From positions 3,104 to 67,103 of the forward strand of contig CAVVPU010000053.1 of the NCBI GenBank assembly GCA_963750015.1: a DNA stretch of 64,000 nucleotides, given 5' to 3'. Origin of the DNA: an uncultured delta proteobacterium. GTDB taxonomy: Bacteria > Desulfobacterota > Syntrophorhabdia > Syntrophorhabdales > WCHB1-27. Below the pieces are notes generated by a model that saw nothing but the letters and a program-made list of their open reading frames with translations, was not told the DNA's origin and did not search any database. A program made the translations under genes and the position numbers. This document shows positions 1,682 through 57,676 of this stretch, piece by piece; the stretch's first letter is position 1; every line of letters begins with the position of its first letter.

Positions 1682-3435
1682 CTATGGAGGTCCGACGATG
1701 GCAAGCGCCAAAGAGGTTCGGACATCCCTATAGAGGCGATGACTATCCGAATAGGGCGAAGACCCAAAAATCGCGAGAGGCCGGTTCGCGATCAGGCACC
1801 GGTCGTCCTCACAGAGGGGCGCCTGAGCCCCGTTGATGCCCAGCTCTTTCAGGCGGACGAGACGCTTTGCCTTGTATAAGACAAAGACGGGCAGATCGGA
1901 CCTGTAGAGGCGGAGAAGCTTATCTGCGTCGAGGAAGAGGTGCTTTGCGTCGGGGTACTGAGACCCCATCTCCAATTCCCCTTTATAATCAGCAATATAG
2001 ACCCTTCTTTTTGTGTAGAACGGCAGGGTTTGGTCATAAGTGGCGTAGTCGACGACCACGGCGTTGGCCGGCCCCTTTTCCACGATTAACCGGGCAAGGT
2101 CCTTTGTGGTGTCGAACCTGTCAATGACGGGTGTGCATGCCAGGAGCACCAGGGTCACCACAACAGAAAAAACCCCGAGCCCGTAGAAAAGAGTCTAAAA
2201 CTCCTCATACAGCCGGATAGGAAAAGGATGAGCATAATGAGGGCAAGACCGGCCATTATGAGAGAGGGGGCCTTCAAGGAGCTTGCGATAACCGAAGCCT
2301 CGGGCACATCCGGCAGGTGGGCCGCAAGGATTCCGCTCCCGGCCAAGAAGGCTCCGAGGGCAAGGAGAAAGAAAAAGAGCGCGTAAGCTATTCCTTCGAT
2401 TCGGAAGCGCTGCCGGCTGCCCCACTGGTCAACGAAAAACCGTGCCAGGACGATCGAGAGGGCCGGAAAGATAGGAAGGATGTAGGGCACGAGCTTCGAG
2501 CCCGAGACGCTGAAGAAGAGAAAGACCACGCCCGACCAGATGAGAAACAGACGCGCCTCTGCGCTCCTCCACAGGCGCCCGGCAGCCCTCGGAATAAAGA
2601 AGGACCAGGGGAAGAGGCCGCCGATTATCACCGGAATAAAGTAATATATTGGGCCTGATCTGTTGTGCTCGGTAGTGAGGAAACGCGTCAGGTTCTGGTC
2701 AATGAAGAAGAATTGAAAGAACTGCGGTTCCTTAAGACAGACGAGAATGAACCAGGGGACGGCGATAACCGCAAAGAGAAGGACCGGCCTCGGTGCAGCC
2801 ATCTTCTTGAGAAAGGAGATCCTTCTCTCCATGACAAGAAAAAGTCCTATCGAAACGCCGAGAAGGACGATGCCCACGGGTCCCTTGGCGAGCACCGACA
2901 GGGCGAGAAAAGCATAAAAGAGATAAAGATAACGGCGCCGATTGCCGAGATAAAACTCATAAAAAGAAAGGAGGGAAGCAGAAAGCAAAAAAGTGAGGAG
3001 CATGTCGATGGTCACCGCCCGGCTCATGCCGAAGAAGCCGAAGGAGGAAGCGAGCATAGAGGACGAGACAAAGGCTGTTTCTTCGCTGAACCTGCGTGCT
3101 GCGAAAAGGTAAACGGCAAGCACGCAGGCGAGGGAAAAAAATGCGTTCGGAAGCCTAAAGGACCACTCGTTTGCCCCCATCAGTTTATAAGAAAGGGCGC
3201 AGGCCCAGTAAAGGAGCGGCGGCTTCTCGAAGTAGCGAACGTAATCGAGATGGGGGACTATGTAGTCGCCCTGTTCTATCATCTCCCGGGGGATCTCCGC
3301 ATACCGCCCCTCGTCCGGCTCCTTGAGGGAATAGCTTCCGAGATGATGGAAAAAAAAGAGATAAGAGAAGGCGAGAATGAGCAGCACATAGACGGCCCGC
3401 TTCTTACGGCTATTCTCCAACAGCACCTCTTCCAC
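1682..3435 (-). pseudogene. ArnT/PMT-like (GT-C fold) membrane glycosyltransferase, split into ORFs 2155..3435 and 1682..2161
   Basis: The N-terminal ORF is polytopic and carries SLKEPDEGRYAEIPREMIEQGDYIVPHLDYVRYFEKPPLLYW, the first-loop motif of ArnT/PMT_2 enzymes. A soluble C-terminal domain follows in another frame. One extra base in the A6 run at 2167-2172 fuses them (..GSGFFSVVVTLVLLAC..). Confidence 0.75.
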
Positions 3436-3825
3436 CCCCGTCCCTTGAGCTATTCCTTCGTGTCCTTCTGCCGACCAATAGCCGCTTCAACCGACCACTA
3501 AAGCGTTCCGCAGAATTGATTCCCGTTTCAACCTCTTTTCGAGCCTTTAGGAATAGGTCATATATGTCCTATAAGACCTATTCTTAGAAAGAAGAAGTGC
3601 CACGCTCAAGGAATGGCCGGGCCCGCTCAATCGTGACTTTATTTTGCAGAACGGCTTAATCATAACCCATCTACGGTTAGCAGATCATGGCCGGAGCATT
3701 ACCTTCCGCCAATAAATCCGGCAGGCCTATTCTATCATATCCGGGCCATTTTGGAAGGCCAAGAAGAGGTCCGCTCAGAGAATTTAGAAATGCTGAAAAA
3801 GACATGAGACAACAAATGCGGGTAC

Positions 3826-3947
3826 GAGGTGTGGCCGGTGACACGGGTCGCCGTATCTTTAAAAGCCCGCGGCTCCGGCCCTCATAGGATGCACATACCA
3901 GCACCAATTGAAGGACCGCCGCAGGCGCGCAGTGCCCCTTCCCGAGA
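3826..3947 (-). repeat. Family-B structured repeat, short variant (copy B1, reverse orientation)
   Basis: Reverse complement aligns with the 5' and 3' parts of the long B copies (..TTCAATTGGTGCTGGTATGTGCATCCTATGAGGGCCGGAGCCGCGGGCTTTTAAAGATACGGCGACCCGTGTCACCGGCCACACCTCG). It lacks the ~150-nt internal stem-loop. Confidence 0.8.
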
Positions 3948-3970: not shown

Positions 3971-4268
3971 ATAACAGAGGCGGCCCGAAGAGGCCGCCCA
4001 AACCATTCCCTCCCTTCCCCTCCCTTTTTTCAGCGCACAGGCATTTGACCCCCTTGGCAATCCCATAAGCGTATGGCACCCCTTCCTCTCGCACATATTG
4101 CGCAGCGACCGTTAACCAGCGTTAGCGGAGCTTGAGCGGTCCCGAAGGGATGATGTGTCATGCTCGAACTGCTTTTAGCTCGGACGCCACCGTGCACATC
4201 AAGCTCAAGCGGAGCTTACGATGGTCGGGAGCGGAGCCTTTGTGCGAGAGGAAGGGGTGCCATACGCG
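3971..4268 (+). repeat. Family-A structured repeat, copy A1 (forward)
   Basis: GC hairpin GGCGGCCCGAAGAGGCCGCC (3979-3998), polypyrimidine tract, CAGCGCACAGGCATT, then a perfect 27-bp stem: 4068-4094 GCGTATGGCACCCCTTCCTCTCGCACA pairs with 4241-4267 TGTGCGAGAGGAAGGGGTGCCATACGC. Three further copies are in the window. Confidence 0.85.
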
Positions 4269-4297
4269 TCGATTCCCCATACCACCCCCATTCAAAC

Positions 4298-4412
4298 GCC
4301 TTTGCTTTGCTTTGCCTTTGCCTTTGCTTTGCCTTTGCCTTTGCTTTGCCTTTGCCTTTGCTTTGCCTTTGCCTTTGCTTTGCCTTTGCTTTGCCTTTGC
4401 CTGTGCCCTGCC
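4298..4412 (+). repeat. tandem repeat, 17-nt unit GCCTTTGCCTTTGCTTT, about 6-7 units
   Basis: Direct reading of 4298-4412. Shorter or degenerate versions follow or precede every A and most B copies. Confidence 0.9.
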
Positions 4413-4497
4413 CTTTTCTTTCCCCTTTCATTTCTCCCCTTGCCGCATTATATAGTGAACGGGAAGAATGTCCCTTTTGGGGCGGCAGGAGGCCGGA

Positions 4498-8951: not shown

Positions 8952-8965
8952 TGAGAGGAACAGAG

Positions 8966-9030
8966 CACAGGCAAGGCACAAGCAAAGGCAAGGCAAAGGC
9001 ACAAGCAAAGGCAAAGGCATTAGGAAGGGG
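8966..9030 (-). repeat. tandem GCAAAGG-type repeat (reverse complement of the 17-nt unit), about 4 degenerate units
   Basis: CACAGGCAAGGCACAAGCAAAGGCAAGGCAAAGGCACAAGCAAAGGCAAAGGCA, directly flanking A2. Confidence 0.8.
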
Positions 9031-9049
9031 AAAGTCATGCCCGTGGGAC

Positions 9050-9340
9050 GCGTATGGCACCCATTCCTCTCGCACAAAGGCTCCGCTCCCGACCATCGTA
9101 AGGCTCCGGTTCGCTTGATGTGCGCGGTGGCGCACGAGCAAAGAAGTCCGAGCACGCACATCATCCCTTCGGGACCGCTCTCCTTAAGCCAACGGTGGTT
9201 AACGGTCGCTCCGCAATATGTGCGGGAGGAACGGGTGCCATACGCTTATGGGATTACCAGGGAGGAATGCCTGTGCGCTGGAGGGGAAGAAAGGAAGGGA
9301 GGGGGTGTCAGGGCGGCCTCTTCGGGCCGCCGGACTTATC
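9050..9340 (-). repeat. Family-A structured repeat, copy A2 (reverse)
   Basis: Reverse complement aligns along its full length with A1. The stem arms at 9050-9076 and 9223-9249 pair at 25/27 positions. The terminal hairpin GGCGGCCTCTTCGGGCCGCC is at 9312-9331. Confidence 0.85.
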
Positions 9341-9394
9341 CAGTAGGTGCCGGTGTGCAACCCTTTCTTGAGAGCCGGAACCTGGAAAGATCGA

Positions 9395-9520
9395 CGGACG
9401 AGGGACGAGAAAAGACATCCCGAAACTCGAATCGCGAATCGCGAAAGTTAACGACAAAAGAGCGACCGACCCCCTCACCCTACCCTCTCCCCTCACCGAG
9501 GGCGAGGGAAAAAAGAGCAT
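9395..9520 (+). repeat. S module: repeat found upstream of two B copies
   Basis: ..GAAACTCGAATCGCGAATCGCGAAAGTTAAC..AAAAGAGCGACCGACCCCCTCACCCTACCCTCTCCCCTCA..GGCGAGGG recurs at 54700-54835. Confidence 0.75.
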
Positions 9521-9529
9521 GTTGCCCTT

Positions 9530-9777
9530 GGCGGCCTCAAGGGACGCCGCCCTTATTCAATTGGTGTTGGTGTGTACATCCTATGAGGGCCGGAGCCGCG
9601 GACCAAAGGATACGGCGACCCGTGTCATCGGGCGGTCGCATGAAGGGGATGCGTCATAGGTGGATGAGATTTGAGCCTTATCGGCCGCAGGCGTACTTTC
9701 GTACGCCGGAGGGCATACGGCGAAAAGATCGCCGCATAGGGCGTATTCCCTTCATGCGACCGGCCACACCTCGTGCC
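9530..9777 (+). repeat. Family-B structured repeat, long variant (copy B2, forward)
   Basis: Has the 5' hairpin GGCGGCC..GCCGCC, then CTTATTCAATTGGTG..CCTATGAGGGCCGGAGCCGCGG. A long stem pairs GGCGGTCGCATGAAGGGGATGCG with CGTATTCCCTTCATGCGACCGGCC. An inner hairpin GGCGTAC-TTTC-GTACGCC is present. Confidence 0.85.
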
Positions 9778-10042
9778 TTCATATGCCCTTGCCTCTGTAT
9801 TTTGCCTCTCGCCCCTTTGTCCCTTCGCCCATAGAGCCCCTTCGCCTCGTCCTGGACGAATTATAACGGGTTGATACCCGAGCTATATATGCACCCGAGC
9901 AGGATCAGCCCCGCATTGACGGCCTTTGTTCTTGCATTGTGCCCTGTTATCGTGTTAATCCCTATTATCGAGATATCGGTATTCCAAGCACCCAAGCCCG
10001 ATCGCCGATCCTCTTCACTTTTCCTCATACTCGGGAGGCTTT

Positions 10043-11354: not shown

Positions 11355-11428
<74 letters not shown>

Positions 11429-14659: not shown

Positions 14660-14887
14660 TCACAGTAGTTTTTCAAATTCGTCAACACCCAGCCTTGCCT
14701 GCTTCAGGATGTGCGAAAGCGTGGAACGCTTCAGTGGCCGATGGGCCGGAAGCGTTAGCTTGAGGACTTCGGCAGCAGTTCGTTTCTGAAGGCGCACGTG
14801 GCTTCCTTTCTGCCTTACCACAACCCATCCATCTCGCTGTAATGCTCGAATAATCTGGTCGTACGGCAGGCTCGGGACTTTGGTCAT
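14660..14887 (-). CDS. hicA: HicA-family mRNA interferase toxin
   Basis: 75 aa. ..IIRALQRDGWVVVRQKGSHVRLQK.. is the HicA/YcfA signature. Overlaps the upstream antitoxin stop by 4 nt. Confidence 0.85.
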   Translation of the reverse strand: MTKVPSLPYDQIIRALQRDGWVVVRQKGSHVRLQKRTAAEVLKLTLPAHRPLKRSTLSHILKQARLGVDEFEKLL

Positions 14888-15087
14888 ACCGCCAATTCGA
14901 CTGTCTCGGCATTCGGTGCGAGAATTTGGTCGTCCTCGACGGGTTCAAGATAAAGTTCGATGGCTTCCCGTATGTTTTTCAAAGCATCTTCTTTGGTCTC
15001 CCCTTCGCTGATGCAGCCGGGCAGCGAAGGAGCGATAGCCGTGTAGCCGCCCTCCTCGCTCGGTTCCAATACGATCCTTAGCCTCAT
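14884..15087 (-). CDS. hicB: HicB-family antitoxin (UPF0150)
   Basis: Reads MRLRIVLEPSEEGGYTAIAPSLPGCISEGETKEDALKNIREAIELYLE. ATG 15087 lies 5 nt after GAGGTG. Confidence 0.85.
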   Translation of the reverse strand: MRLRIVLEPSEEGGYTAIAPSLPGCISEGETKEDALKNIREAIELYLEPVEDDQILAPNAETVELAV

Positions 15088-15206
15088 AATTTCACCTCGT
15101 CCCAAAAGTATACACCATTCCGAAAAACAGGCGTAGTTTCTTGGGATGTTGCTTCCAACGTTTCTCGGCTGATTTGATGTCCCTTACCTTTTTTCCCTTT
15201 GCCTTT

Positions 15207-15276
15207 GGCGGCCTCAAAGGGACGCCGCTCTTATTCAATTGTTGCTGGTGTGTGTATCCTATGAAGGCCGGAGCCG
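15207..15276 (+). repeat. Family-B repeat, 5' fragment (copy B3)
   Basis: GGCGGCCTCAAAGGGACGCCGCTCTTATTCAATTGTTGCTGGTGTGTGTATCCTATGAAGGCCGGAGCCGG, then it diverges into another hairpin-rich sequence. Confidence 0.75.
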
Positions 15277-15454
15277 GAAAGGACAGAGGGGAGCGGAGAG
15301 ATCGTCCCTTCGGGACTGGGGAGCGGGGAGAGAAAGAGCTTTTTTGCTCCCCAGCGAGTAGAACGAGCGGTCTCCCATCTCCCATCTCCCCTCCCCTTTG
15401 TGCTCACCCCTCCCCTCTTGATCGACCCTGCCCCATACTCGGCAAATTCACCGC

Positions 15455-31070: not shown

Positions 31071-31221
31071 GGACCTTTTTGTCATAGGTCCTATCGGTCC
31101 TATAAGACCTATTCTTCTCCGTTGAAAAAACTGCCCGACGATAGGTTGCACAGTACCAAGTCGCGGCCAGACCCCATTGTCCGTCCTCCGGCCCGAACAG
31201 GCCTCATCTTGCCGGCGGCCC

Positions 31222-32281: not shown

Positions 32282-32575
32282 GCGTATGGCACCCGATCCT
32301 CTCGCACATCAGGCTCCGCTCCCGACCACCGTAAGCTCCACTTGAGCTTGATGTGCATGGTGGCGTCCGAGCTAAAAGCAGTTCGAGCATGACACATCAT
32401 CCTTCGGACCGCTCAAGCTCCGCTAACGCTGGTTAACGGTCGCTTAAGCAATATGTGCGAGAGGATCGGGTGCCATACGCTTATGGGACTGCCAGGGGGA
32501 AAATGCCTGTGCGCTGAAAAGAAGAAAGGGAATGGAGGGAATGTAACGGGCGGCCCGTAAGGCCGCCGGGCGATG
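32282..32575 (-). repeat. Family-A structured repeat, copy A3 (reverse)
   Basis: The arms GCGTATGGCACCCGATCCTCTCGCACA (32282-32308) and TGTGCGAGAGGATCGGGTGCCATACGC (32454-32480) pair at 27/27, with two compensated substitutions relative to A1. The terminal hairpin GGCGGCCCGTAAGGCCGCC is at 32549-32567. Confidence 0.85.
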
Positions 32576-37083: not shown

Positions 37084-37577
37084 CCGGGGGCGCTCGTGTC
37101 CGCGCGTGCGCGCCTGACATGGCGCTGTGGGCTTCACTGCGTCATCTTTTTGTCGATGGGTCCTCTCTATTTCTGGTGCATTTTTGTGCGCAACAGGCCG
37201 GGGAAAGCCGTTTTTGAACCGACGGGAGCAAGAATACATCCTTCAGTCGAGCCCGAAGGAACACTCTCAGGCAGACAGGCGGAATAGATGGGCCGGATCG
37301 ATGCCCTGATCCTGGTCAGACGGGGCATGTTGGCCCTGGACACCAACACCCGGGTCTAAGACCCGGCCGGTGTCGGAACATCCTTCCCTAGTCCCCCGCT
37401 TGCAATCCTTGCGCTGGATGGACGTGTGCTCCACGGAAAGTGACCGAAATCACGTCCGGGCCTCATTGGTTCTATTGCAGCACTATACCGGCATTCCTCA
37501 AGAATTCTTGAACGTCGAGGGGCATCATTTGTAGGTGAATGTACTACGTGTAGGCAGTGGAAATCTTGTTCTGCCTT

Positions 37578-37840
37578 TGGCGGCCTTCAGGGACGCCGCT
37601 CTTATTCAATTGGTGCTGGTGTGCGCATCCTATGAAGGCCGGAGCCGCGCTCTCTTTGATGATACGGCGACCCGTGCCACCGGCCGGTCGGATGGGAGGG
37701 ATCGTGAGCTGTGGATGGGCTGTCGTGCCTCATAGACCGCAGGCGTACTTAACGTACGCCGGGGCGTCATGAGGTGCGGCAGAGCGCCGCAGATCGCGAT
37801 CTCTCCCAGCCGACCGGCCACACCTCGTGCCCTCACTCGT
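37578..37840 (+). repeat. Family-B structured repeat, long variant (copy B6, forward)
   Basis: The stem pairs GGCCGGTCGGATGGGAGGGATCG with CGATCTCTCCCAGCCGACCGGCC. Inner hairpin is GGCGTAC-TTAAC-GTACGCC. Confidence 0.85.
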
Positions 37841-43070: not shown

Positions 43071-43382
43071 ATAATAGCGGCGGCCTGAAGGCCGCCCATT
43101 ACATCCCCTCCTTTCCCTTTTCCCCCCCAGTGCACAGGCATTTGCCCTTGGCAAGTCCATAAGCGTATGGCACCCCTTCCTCTCGCACATATTGCGGAGC
43201 GACCGTTAACCACCGTTGGCTTAAGGAGAGCGGTCCGTGAGGATGATGTGCGTGCTCGAACTCGGGGCACCCAGCCCTAAGGCTGGGTCGGACTTGGACG
43301 CCACCGCGCACATCAAGCGAACTGGAGCCTTACGGGGGTCGGGAGCGGAGCCTCATGTGCGAGAGGAAGGGGTGCCATACGC
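43071..43382 (+). repeat. Family-A structured repeat, copy A4 (forward)
   Basis: Same 27-bp stem arms as A1, at 43163-43189 and 43356-43382. It carries an extra internal hairpin CCCAGCC-CTAA-GGCTGGG. Confidence 0.85.
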
Positions 43383-43407
43383 TTCCCGCAAGCAGTGGTC
43401 CTTAGAT

Positions 43408-43456
43408 GCCTTTGCTTTGCCTTTGCTTTGCCTTTGCCTTTGCCCTCGCCTGTGCG
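43408..43456 (+). repeat. tandem GCCTTTG-type repeat, about 3 units
   Basis: GCCTTTGCTTTGCCTTTGCTTTGCCTTTGCCTTTGCCCTCGCC. It ends 36 nt before the tatD start. Confidence 0.8.
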
Positions 43457-43491
43457 TTGATTCTGCCTCCTCCTCTGTGCTATAAATTGCC

Positions 43492-54699: not shown

Positions 54700-54835
54700 G
54701 AAGGACCGATGGACGAGAAGAACAAGCGCGAAACTCGAACCGCGAATCGCGAAAGTTAATATAAAAGAGCGAACGACCACCCTCACCCTACCCTCTCCCC
54801 TCATTAAAGGCGAGGGGAAAAATGGCATCCCTTTG
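54700..54835 (+). repeat. S module, second copy
   Basis: GAAACTCGAACCGCGAATCGCGAAAGTTAAT..AAAAGAGCGAACGACCACCCTCACCCTACCCTCTCCCCTCA..GGCGAGGGG; compare 9395-9520. Confidence 0.75.
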
Positions 54836-54848
54836 GAATGTTTCTTTT

Positions 54849-55116
54849 GGCGGCCTCTATGGGCCGCCGCCCTTATTCAATTGGTGCTGGTGTGTGCATC
54901 CTATGAAGGCCGGAGCCGCGGGCTTTTGGAGATACGGCGACCCGTGTCACCGGCCGGTCGGCTGGGAGGGATCGTGAGGTGTGGATGCAATTTGAGCCTT
55001 GCTGCCCGGATGGCGTACTAAATGTACGTCGGAGGGCGCATGGCGAAAAGTGCGCCGCCGGGTGCCCGCTTGCGGGCGGCACGATTCCTCCCAGCCGACC
55101 GGCCACACCCCGTGCC
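54849..55116 (+). repeat. Family-B structured repeat, long variant (copy B7, forward)
   Basis: A 25-bp stem pairs GGCCGGTCGGCTGGGAGGGATCGTG with CACGATTCCTCCCAGCCGACCGGCC, including one G-U. It is followed by GCCTTTGCCTTTGCCCTTGCC at 55120-55150. Confidence 0.85.
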
Positions 55117-55202
55117 CTCTCTTGCCTTTGCCTTTGCCCTTGCCTCTTTTGCTTCTGCGCCTCCCGCCTCTTTGCCTCCCGCATTGACTTCCGGGAGACG
55201 AT

Positions 55203-56306
55203 GTGGAAAAATTGAGTATGGACGAGATCATTCAAGCTATCTTGGAGGGTAAGGAGCCAAATCAGCCGCTCGACCGTATCTTGGCTCTGCCCCGATCCGA
55301 ACAGGAGGAGCTGATCCGGCGTCTGGGCACGCTCAAGAGCCCGCTGGCGGGGGCATTCCTCTCGACCCTCTATCCGCGCCTTTCAGACAAGGTGCTCCAG
55401 AAGCTCGCCAAGAAGGCCATCTTTCACCTTAAGACACTCGGCATAGCCGTGGAAGAGCCGAAAGTCGCCGGAGAATCCGCTCTAAAACCGATAGACACCT
55501 CCCGGGAGGCGATGGGTCTCCTGTCGAATTACGACGGGGAATCGCTGAGGGTCATCCTTGCGGCAGTGGAGCTGAAGAAAAACCAGTTTCTCTTCTCCCA
55601 CGCCATCAGCCATTTCAGCAACGGCCTCGTCGACCTGCAGAGCATGGCCGTCAGCAGGCCCCAGCTCGAGGAGCTTACCCGGGACTATGTGGCGAGAACC
55701 AAGACTCCCATCCTGTTGACCGAGATATCGCCGCTCTACGCCGGATATTTGATCGAGGAGGCTGCCTCTGTCTCGGGGCACGATACGGAAGACGCCAGGT
55801 CCCTAAACCGAATGCTCTCATCGGCCAAAGGGAATGCAAGGAAACCGGCCGATATCTATCTCTTCGAGACAGAAGCCGACCTCGTGCCGGCCCCATCAGA
55901 GGCAGTGCTGGGGGACGAGCTTTTCAAGCCGTTCACCCTCGATTGGCGGGGGATCGAAGAAGACCGGAAAAGGTTGAACGACGCTATCAACCCCGGGATC
56001 GTCCTTCCCCCTTCGGCGATCCTGGAAAGGAAAACCGATTTCTTCGTGGAACTCGTCAAGAAAGGGCAAATCCAGCCCGTATTGCCCGCCTTCAAAAGGA
56101 TGCTCGAGGATTCGGCCTATCTCTTCTTCTGTCTCAAGGAGCTGCCCCTCTATGCAGGCATCATGAGTCTCCTCAAGGCGCCCGACGGCGTCGAGGCGGC
56201 CCTGACCTATTTCCTCGACAAGGCCCTTACGGAAAAGGAGAAGAAAGAAGAGCAGCACCAGCAGCCGGGCCTCATCGTCGATCCCTATTCCCTCGGCCGC
56301 CGTTAG
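55203..56306 (+). CDS. hypothetical protein (367 aa)
   Basis: Long clean ORF with coding-like composition. GTG start lies 5 nt after GGGAG. No motif recognised. Confidence 0.6.
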   Translation: MEKLSMDEIIQAILEGKEPNQPLDRILALPRSEQEELIRRLGTLKSPLAGAFLSTLYPRLSDKVLQKLAKKAIFHLKTLGIAVEEPKVAGESALKPIDTSREAMGLLSNYDGESLRVILAAVELKKNQFLFSHAISHFSNGLVDLQSMAVSRPQLEELTRDYVARTKTPILLTEISPLYAGYLIEEAASVSGHDTEDARSLNRMLSSAKGNARKPADIYLFETEADLVPAPSEAVLGDELFKPFTLDWRGIEEDRKRLNDAINPGIVLPPSAILERKTDFFVELVKKGQIQPVLPAFKRMLEDSAYLFFCLKELPLYAGIMSLLKAPDGVEAALTYFLDKALTEKEKKEEQHQQPGLIVDPYSLGRR

Positions 56307-57294: not shown

Positions 57295-57535
57295 TCTCTC
57301 TTTCCGAGAAGCGGTTGTCGCGGGGCCATCGCCCCGTCCTAATAATGATCGCCCATTAGCCTAAAGACTTAACCGTATCGCCCTTCGTCACGTCCATACA
57401 TTCCCGAACTTCCGCCAGTGCCTTTGTCCGGCTCTTACTACATTTATGAGTCGTCCGGAAATACAGGCTAGGTGTTTTGCTAGGTGCAATTCGTCATATT
57501 TTGTGCTACTTTGTTATCGGCGTCTGATAAAGCCA

Positions 57536-57630
57536 AACCATCCGCGAGGATGGGACGGAAAGCCAACGGGTCTCAAGATCGCGCAAGCGGTCTCCTCCCT
57601 TGGAGATGGCCGGGCCGCCAGTAGAAACGT
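57536..57630 (+). promoter_or_regulatory. second candidate c-di-GMP-I-like aptamer (5' half convincing, 3' half atypical)
   Basis: AAAGCCAAACCAUCC-GCGA-GGAUGGGACGGAAAGCC is nearly identical to the 25570 element and parallels GEMM-I. The downstream part differs and contains AUCGC-GCAA-GCGGU. Confidence 0.4.
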
Positions 57631-57631
57631 C

Positions 57632-57676
57632 GAATGAACTACCCCGCAGCGCAGCATGCTGCGGGGTAGTTCATTC
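57632..57676 (+). other. perfect 19-bp hairpin in the long glgP leader
   Basis: GAATGAACTACCCCGCAGC-GCAGCAT-GCTGCGGGGTAGTTCATTC. Confidence 0.7.

Follow-up and report, generated by a model that had tools for sequence, protein, structure and literature searches.

Introduction

Pneumococcal BOX elements (boxA-boxB(n)-boxC) and the RUP/SPRITE repeats are modular, dispersed, intergenic DNA units without an open reading frame (ORF), for which very stable RNA structures are predicted once they are transcribed. The ERIC/IRU and REP/BIME repeats of Enterobacteria and the REPINs of Pseudomonas are intergenic palindromes that are mosaic, occur in both orientations, vary between strains and serve as targets of insertion sequence (IS) elements, their structure being conserved above their sequence. 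A REP unit spans 20-40 nt and a REPIN about 100 nt; a GTAG-type motif marks them, and a RAYT gene is linked to them. Neisserial Correia elements (CREE/NEMIS) are bounded by terminal inverted repeats, with a TA duplication, and contain an IHF site. We describe here family B, a long-hairpin repeat found in a 64,000-nt stretch of contig CAVVPU010000053.1 from an uncultured delta proteobacterium (hereafter 'the window', meaning the whole stretch that was analysed). Family B is a previously uncatalogued repeat, best read as a new BOX/ERIC/BIME-like one in a Syntrophorhabdaceae lineage where none has been described, and it behaves as dispersed, insertion-prone repeat DNA, not as a gene-specific regulatory RNA.

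In B, as in BOX, terminal modules pair into a long stem around variable internal modules, and no ORF is present. B differs from BOX in lacking sequence similarity to it, in belonging to another phylum, in having an extra structured core of ~110 nt and a pyrimidine-rich tail, and in a G-U asymmetry and a multi-helix apical domain that are more elaborate. With ERIC, BIME and REPIN it shares intergenic placement, palindromy, mosaicism, both orientations, variable presence and insertion by IS elements, whereas its hairpin of 140-160 nt with internal helices is unlike REP or REPIN, and neither a GTAG-type motif nor a RAYT gene was seen. The ~25-bp stem, the insertion near promoters and the mosaic intergenic arrays of several families recall the Correia and NIME repeats, whose stems form RNA hairpins in transcripts; in B, though, the inverted repeat lies inside the element, and no such duplication was seen. 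Strongly covarying structures of 150-300 nt that are multicopy and strand-specific are also known from the HEARO/IscB omegaRNA, the IS605-orfB/TnpB omegaRNA and the IS110 bridge RNA; those lie beside a protein gene and end at the element boundary, while B is unlinked to such a gene.

Copies of family B

The four long + strand copies listed by a first-pass annotation of the window were recovered in their places (Table 1), with the quoted stem sequences correct. Two further members had escaped it, a 5' fragment on the + strand and a short form on the - strand, so that the window holds six copies, five of them on the + strand, spaced 5.7-22 kb apart among housekeeping genes and one of them inverted. 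The most conserved stretch is the 19-mer CCTATGARGGCCGGASCCG (54900-54918, +), with six exact matches in the window against 0.12 expected. Together with 23 copies on metagenome contigs and two diverged copies on L043, a contig from a relative with 89% ClpB identity, at least 31 copies are in hand (L numbers denote contigs outside the window).

The annotated stem and domain are real, yet the repeat unit is larger than had been supposed. The full unit has five parts: a GC hairpin, the core of ~110 nt, an optional long hairpin of ~140-160 nt, a conserved tail and a pyrimidine-rich tract, often with further modules upstream.

Fold and strand asymmetry

The + strand fold of B is under structural selection. 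Sixteen long copies were aligned by MAFFT without structure fitting, and pairs were predicted by RNAalifold. Compensatory double changes are present at 19 of the 61 predicted pairs. Standard pairs fill 95.9% of cells; sliding the 3' partners by one to three columns brings this down to 37-44%, and none of 500 column shuffles reached any of the observed pairing measures. The outer stem (helix 4) accounts for 21 pairs, nine of them changed compensatorily, and helices 6, 7 and 8 covary as well, with three, four and one pairs changed on both sides. At least seven distinct outer-stem haplotypes occur, every one self-complementary.

In the outer stem of the four window copies the first-pass annotation had counted five G-U pairs and no A-C pair, and our recount agrees: the alignment gives three A-C cells to B5, but these are a register artefact of MAFFT, and aligned by hand the B5 stem has one G-U, one C-U mismatch and no A-C. 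Nor does the asymmetry fade with more copies, as that annotation had allowed it might; it rises to 124 G-U cells versus eight A-C cells over the 16 long copies and 61 pairs. At seven of the paired positions half of the copies or more have G-U, and A-C is the majority state at none. Folded alone, the hairpin is more stable on the + strand in all 16 copies (mean difference 20.8 kcal/mol) and likewise in both L043 copies. The fold of B7 reaches -160.7 kcal/mol (z = -7.5), that of the opposite strand -138.0; with DNA parameters the strand gap of B7 is 6.7 kcal/mol, and the - strand centroid is without the apical helices. Near-fixed G-U pairs lie in the covarying helices 5 and 6. The GC skew on the + strand of the window is negative and weak.

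Anatomy of the unit

Coordinates are collected in Table 1, with B7 as the reference. Most copies have H1, as does the diverged L043 copy, other modules taking its place in B1, L014, L031 and L016; the sequence upstream of H1 is unrelated between copies, except where other repeat modules are present. The core consists of two or three small helices. Within H2 a C-G pair (nine copies) is replaced by U-A (six copies) with no mismatches, and nine copies have a G-U pair at columns 50/65; the exact H2 fold is unsettled because RNAalifold prefers an alternative pairing there. The H2 loop GGUGUG could pair with CACACC of the tail as a pseudoknot, but these positions are nearly invariant and the variants that occur break the pairing.

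The P2 helix, GGAGCCG/CGGCTCC, forms 7 bp in 11 of the 16 copies and has one G-U pair in a twelfth. B5 has the compensatory GGACCCG/CGGGTCC, which bears out the GCCG/CGGC (B7) to CCCG/CGGG (B5) change noted at first pass, and the L043 copy keeps a helix at the same position with an unrelated stem sequence, CCGGAATTG/CAATTCCGG. The P2 loop differs in length between copies by non-multiples of 3. No conserved ORF exists in B, since loop-length indels are not multiples of 3; a small ORF from the ATG in CCTATGA was ruled out, its frames and stops varying as well. A likeness of GAGCCG...CGGCTC to group II intron domain V was rejected, with no Rfam intron match and a wrong hairpin length.

Inverted-repeat detection gave the long copies arms of 25-34 nt, 79-96% complementary and enclosing 68-103 nt; besides the B7 arms these include 37682-37714/37787-37819 (B6) and 9630-9663/9732-9765 (B2). 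The inner hairpin GGCGTAC-loop-GTACGCC with its varying loops is present as first described. A sub-hairpin at ~55057-55081 occurs in seven of 17 copies, the others having AGATCGC instead. Apical U-G pairs stand at columns 152/230 in 14 of 16 copies and at columns 156/227 in all 16, and the internal motifs GTGGATG and GCGCCGC are invariant.

The 70 nt past the element have a mean composition over 24 copies of C 0.36, T 0.30, G 0.19 and A 0.15, compared with C 0.29, T 0.22, G 0.27 and A 0.22 in the window; the pyrimidine share is thus 66% against 51%. In minimum free energy folds of composites, pairing joins the GA-rich flank on the 5' side to the CU-rich tail on the 3' side.

Table 1. Copies of family B in the window and parts of the unit, the latter in B7 coordinates
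Feature	Position	Strand	Remarks
B7, long form	54843-55120	+	Reference copy for anatomy coordinates
B2, long form	9523-9785	+	Covariance model 124.9 bits; within a ~870-nt composite with family A at 8965-9834
B5, long form	21304-21551	+	Covariance model 131.2 bits; antisense to both flanking - strand genes
B6, long form	37572-37840	+	Covariance model 120.5 bits
B3, 5' fragment only	15201-15278	+	Broken at GGAGCCGG, a breakpoint common to L025 and L037
B1, short form	3820-3912	-	Core and tail, long hairpin precisely absent: CACCGGCC/ACACC junction
Diverged partial 5' module between family A and B2	9313-9385	+	H1-like hairpin plus CTTATCCAGTAGGTGCCGGTGTGCAACCC; 76-83% identity (BLAST) to the 5' part of B3, B6 and B7
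Upstream modules D14 (GAAACTCGAAYCGCGAATCGCGAAAGTTAA) and D15 (CCCTCACCCTACCCTC...GAGGG)	54707-54828	+	Direct repeats common to 9399-9520
H1, 7-bp GC-rich hairpin	54849-54868	+	GGCGGCC-TCTATG-GGCCGCC, 5' edge of B7; followed by CCCTTATTCAATT
H2 stem-loop	54876-54907	+	UUCA/UGAA outer pairs; inner helix GGUGC-UGGUGUGU-GCAUC
P1/P2 region	54908-54955	+	GGCCGG...CCGGCC closes GGAGCCG-variable loop-CGGCxxC
Long stem, 5' arm	54952-54976	+	25 nt, 96% complementary to the 3' arm
Apical domain, helices 5-8	54977-55079	+	Includes inner hairpin 55012-55030 and the optional sub-hairpin
Internal region			GUGGAUGC/GCGCCGC
Long stem, 3' arm	55080-55104	+	Partner of 54952-54976
Conserved 3' tail	55105-55119	+	ACACCYCGTGCCC; kept even in short forms
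Pyrimidine-rich GCCTTT-like tract	to ~55183	+	After the tail

Mosaicism, deletion and insertion

The first-pass annotation was right to see a structured repeat and had not considered its dispersed, mosaic, insertion- and deletion-prone character. Short forms without the hairpin have differing junctions (B1/L017, L033/L038, L032 and L040), and independent slippage deletions at the palindromic CCGGCC/GGTCGG base therefore fit better than a single empty site. B3, L025 and L037 all break off at the same point and run on into module D14; in L025 the 3' half of B resumes ~190 nt further on, with modules D14/D15 sitting in the P2 loop, within the core. D14/D15 precede B in at least seven copies, including L015, L022, L037 and L042, and D15 stands alone in L017. 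Family A, a second repeat described below, lies ahead of B at two window loci and in L038, and L042 has two B copies head-to-head, 130 nt apart.

Larger elements have entered B as well. The apical loop of L019 (195-1090) holds an IS5-family element (DUF4096 + DDE_Tnp_1) at TTAG, L031 (369-594) and L035 (1094-2164) are each broken at a different position by an IS110-family transposase gene or a fragment of one, and in L016 (976-2355) a group II intron reverse transcriptase/maturase abuts the core, ending at the place expected for H1. The large insertions of L019, L031, L025 and L043b lie in predicted loops, which fits selection on the helices. L043 also has another small repeated hairpin module, GGGCACCCCCGACCGSCCAGAMATGTTGAGAGC...GGGGGTCGCA, at 310-372 and 455-540, one copy being nested in the apical loop of the B-like hairpin upstream of clpB.

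Gene context and the clpB locus

B has no gene-specific association. Its orientation relative to the downstream gene is near random (~10 same, seven convergent). With neighbouring genes identified by Pfam or clear homology, about 10 copies precede a start codon on their own strand by 60-250 nt, and seven point at a convergent gene from its 3' side (B3, B5, L016, L027, L037, L040 and L043a). The downstream genes are unrelated to each other: PMT, MFS, RlmN-like, CysE-like, TatA-like, nitroreductase-like and hydrolase.

The most informative locus is that of B7. The spacer between clpB and a divergent gene of 360 aa is 625 bp in the window versus 180-186 bp in four relatives, and the extra ~440 nt are the block D14-D15-B7-CT tract. 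Because this block lies between two conserved boxes, the promoter-like one of clpB and TTGACT-17-AAAAAT, the latter ending 5 nt before the ATG at 55218, B7 is an insertion in a promoter-to-promoter spacer and not a 5' untranslated region. When the filled site is compared with the empty sites of L045, L046 and L048, the spacer is too diverged for placing the junction or a target duplication. The B copy upstream of clpB in L043 is a different one, oriented the other way; it is the one with a nested module in its apical loop.

The TTGACT-17-AAAAAT box of the 360-aa gene ends 5-7 nt before the ATG in the window (55184-55220) and at the equivalent places in L045 and L048, a distance that suggests a leaderless mRNA for this gene. 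As candidate promoter boxes in B, TTCAAT/TATGAA and TTGGCG/TATTCA were rejected on hand check for their wrong spacings, and a sigma-54-like TGGTGC-N-TGCA was rejected with a spacing off by one and its GC lost in GTACAT variants.

Searches beyond the window and class assignment

A metagenome scan with the core 19-mer returned 29 contigs, 23 with true B copies, nearly all of these in one JGI sample series (Ga0181520 and neighbours). Samples with the family come from peat/sediment (Ga0181520, Ga0181517, Ga0181539, Ga0182028 and 3300035696). The metagenome loci have no flanking genes in common with the window loci. Among 185,579 GTDB species genomes the same 19-mer had 12 singleton matches, about equal to the estimated chance number and none extending past the pattern. 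The two diverged copies of L043 were detected by a hairpin hidden Markov model (HMM) and a covariance model; the same models found no B match in 59 kb (22.6 + 22.6 + 14 kb) from relatives with 85-86% ClpB identity. The nearest named relatives of the window ClpB are Syntrophorhabdaceae/Syntrophorhabdales metagenome-assembled genomes, and the genes of the window (ClpB, an RpoD-like sigma factor, NrdD, LepB, an MFS transporter and an M50 peptidase) are of ordinary chromosomal type.

A match to a known repeat, which the first-pass annotation had named as a refuting result, did not appear in Rfam or in the phage, plasmid and viral-contig collections. At the gathering thresholds of Rfam 15 the whole window yielded only a tRNA and two c-di-GMP-I riboswitches and no match to B, and the B7 region at E<=10 gave only miRNA/frameshift noise far below threshold. 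The phage, plasmid and viral-contig collections had no B match, and a literature search of limited extent turned up nothing relevant to the family.

Several classes were considered and rejected. B is short (~280 nt), lacks an ORF and has at least 31 copies, as a miniature inverted-repeat transposable element would, but its 25-bp inverted repeat is internal instead of terminal, flanked by the conserved core and tail; composite ends show loose GA-rich/CT-rich complementarity only, and the IS5 and IS110 ends are unrelated to B. Against a REP/REPIN-RAYT assignment, the hairpin arms are unique sequences without REP doublet organisation, and no Y1 (RAYT) gene was seen among the scanned neighbours (the 64-kb window and short metagenome contigs). 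Integron attC sites do not agree with copies that lie so far apart among ClpB, the RpoD-like sigma factor, NrdD and LepB, one of them inverted, and the spacing and the TRF output exclude an attC, CRISPR or tandem array. Intergenic, multicopy, modular and strain-variable, with a stable predicted hairpin, B would instead take its place among the BOX/ERIC-type repeats.

Interpretation

The reading that we prefer, and to which we give about an even chance of being right, is that B is a non-autonomous, mosaic, dispersed intergenic repeat whose + strand fold is selected, mainly as RNA, for a boundary role. B units are gained and lost locus by locus, nest in each other and serve IS elements as landing pads, and the long hairpin is probably lost through slippage at its base. 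The + strand fold would matter mainly as RNA, when read-through or local promoters transcribe a copy. Transcribed B would present a very stable structure and then an unstructured C-rich, G-poor tail, a transcript-boundary module that might act by blocking exonucleases, or by Rho-type termination (Rho loading) and insulation. That function is speculative. As the selected molecule, RNA seems somewhat more probable than single-stranded DNA (ssDNA), because G-U-bearing helices are weak in DNA, because the size and branching of the fold go beyond known ssDNA transposase substrates, and because both A and B have CU-rich tails 3' of the hairpin, each on its own better-folding strand; the smaller strand gap with DNA parameters and the near-fixed G-U pairs of helices 5 and 6 likewise favour RNA. 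The data establish the repeat, its covarying and strand-asymmetric fold, the insertion polymorphism, the mosaicism and the absence of a tie to particular genes; that selection acts on RNA, that B marks transcript boundaries and how it spreads are what we infer from them.

A number of facts weigh against this reading. The G-T wobble asymmetry is equally expected from a strand-specific ssDNA intermediate, and cell counts overstate the number of independent events because the copies share descent. Every metagenome copy was recovered through the core 19-mer, which biases the sample. B yielded neither terminal inverted repeats nor a target-site duplication nor a parent transposase, and its mobility is accordingly read from presence/absence and mosaicism solely. 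Consensus scans, which leave non-canonical signals beyond their reach, found no sigma-70-like promoter or intrinsic terminator inside B2 or B7. B3, B5 and L043a (L043 9300-9040) are antisense to both neighbours, and B7 sits in a spacer from which two promoters point away, so that no read-through is expected there; with copies so badly placed, many may never be transcribed in the folding orientation. From the first-pass claim of a forward RNA we retain the covarying, strand-asymmetric fold, but not a dedicated-gene transcript, which is not established, given the missing promoter and terminator, the near-random orientation, the position of B7 upstream of a promoter and the equal prediction from ssDNA.

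The main alternative, which we regard as unlikely, is that B moves or persists via a strand-specific ssDNA intermediate, REPIN/RAYT- or IS200/IS605-PATE-like, with its hairpins as protein recognition structures. G-T pairs would then be tolerated on the active strand only, and the asymmetry does persist weakly with DNA parameters; the many copies, the insertion polymorphism, the truncated and nested copies, the orientation unrelated to genes, the lack of promoter and terminator and the five of six window copies on one strand would all be at home there, and the invariant GTGGATG and GCGCCGC could be protein-binding sites. However, no Y1/HUH transposase gene lies beside any of the ~31 copies, the transposases seen being IS5 and IS110 with their own ends, and B is without sharp ends, a conserved tetranucleotide at its flanks or a REP-like GTAG motif. 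The head-to-head pair of L042 and the - strand window copy argue that orientation is not tied to replication direction, the apical helices need several G-T pairs, weak in DNA, and to our knowledge ssDNA transposase substrates are much smaller than a multi-helix hairpin of 150 nt. Less probable again is that the copies are genes of one family for a structured non-coding RNA (ncRNA) that acts in trans, for example as RNA subunit or sponge of an RNA-binding protein, each copy having its own unrecognised promoter. The covarying multi-helix build is kept in the diverged relative, where the P2 sequence is replaced and the helix retained, conserved unpaired or wobble-containing motifs occur, insertions are tolerated only in loops, and copies antisense to their neighbours would make sense as independent genes; yet there is no conserved promoter- or terminator-like signal within or 5' of B, many copies are truncated or lack the main hairpin, presence varies among close relatives, and the relatives with 85-86% ClpB identity gave no match. 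In a bolder version, a long shot in our judgement, families B and A may be genes for a new class of large structured ncRNA with tens to hundreds of copies per genome, in which the multi-helix domain and the CU-rich tail would be a scaffold or guide for some protein, or which would spread in a SINE-like manner through an RNA intermediate, group II intron reverse transcriptases being present in the same population.

A solo guide or scaffold RNA of a mobile-element enzyme (TnpB/IscB omegaRNA or IS110 bridge RNA), dispersed without its protein gene, would have precedent in the multicopy structured motifs HEARO and IS605-orfB, which proved to be such RNAs, and would suit the strong strand-specific, RNA-like covariation and the IS110-family elements physically associated with two copies. 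We think it very improbable: no tnpB, iscB or IS110 gene stands beside B in a consistent geometry, IS110 and IS5 interrupt B at varying positions and orientations, as insertions would, Rfam gives no match to HEARO or related families, and the 3' end of B decays into a low-complexity tract without a sharp stop before a guide. Equally remote is a neutral palindromic DNA repeat, with arms kept complementary by intra-hairpin templated repair or gene conversion. Very long, near-perfect stems (93-100% complementary arms in family A) and hairpin deletions typical of palindrome instability speak for it, but it predicts strand symmetry, contradicted by the near-fixed G-T, the lack of fixed A-C and the energy asymmetry in all 16 copies; covariation also extends to inner helices that have bulges and wobbles, and, as a weak argument, the negative GC skew would rather favour A-C on the + strand. 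The lowest probability of all goes to a cis-regulatory leader, a riboswitch or attenuator of the downstream gene, which the context effectively refutes. The ~10 copies upstream of same-strand starts and the two c-di-GMP riboswitches of the window, which tell that this genome uses RNA leaders, could have suggested one; the downstream genes, however, are functionally unrelated, seven copies face a convergent gene's 3' end, and at B7 the conserved -35/-10 of the following gene comes only after the repeat, in a locus that four relatives have empty.

In an uncultured syntrophic lineage (Syntrophorhabdaceae, Desulfobacterota), B is an unusually clear instance of strand-specific structural selection. 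Such repeats fragment metagenome assemblies, the related contigs being mostly 1-3 kb and several ending inside B, create insertion hot spots for IS elements and introns, and can remodel promoter regions, as at clpB. If selection is at the RNA level, the genome holds many ready-made modules of stable hairpin and C-rich tail that could set transcript boundaries; if at the ssDNA level, B points to an unrecognised mobilisation system. Either way it is a clean test case for RNA-level versus DNA-level selection on bacterial repeats.

Neighbouring repeats and other features of the window

Family A, the second long-hairpin repeat, lies at 4069-4267, 9050-9245, 32282-32480 and 43161-43384, with a fragment in the relative L045 at 4185-4348. 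Its arms of 27-30 bp are 93-100% complementary (100% in three of four copies) and close 142-164 nt. Neither nhmmer nor a covariance model finds homology between the A and B hairpins. In A+B composites the better-folding strand of A is opposite to that of B, the differences being 6-9 kcal/mol, and on that strand a (CUUUGC)n tract follows every A copy. Microsatellite-like GCCTTT/GCAAAG tracts with periods of 6, 11 and 17 flank A and B at 4298-4432, 8965-9038, 43386-43475 and 55120-55183, three of them directly upstream of the + strand start codons at 4468, 43492 and 55218.

Immediately beside the truncated B3 a HicA/HicB-like toxin-antitoxin pair (14660-15105, -) was recognised by eye from translations. 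The two c-di-GMP-I riboswitch aptamers, at 25568-25667 (+) and 57523-57623 (+), score above the Rfam gathering thresholds, and the second is a GGC variant; after it comes a perfect 19-bp inverted repeat (57632-57676) that is probably its expression platform or terminator. An ORF at 21564-22253 (-) is Cas6-like (Pfam PF10040, E = 8e-10); the tandem-repeat output for the window had no CRISPR array, and no other cas genes were noticed nearby. The tRNA gene is at 11355-11428 (-), with an Rfam score of 71.5 bits. A 45-nt repeat, 82% identical between its copies at 3541-3585 and 31072-31116, contains TAGGTC...GACCTA palindromes and looks like an operator; one of the two copies separates B1 from the PMT-family gene at 2155-3435 (-).

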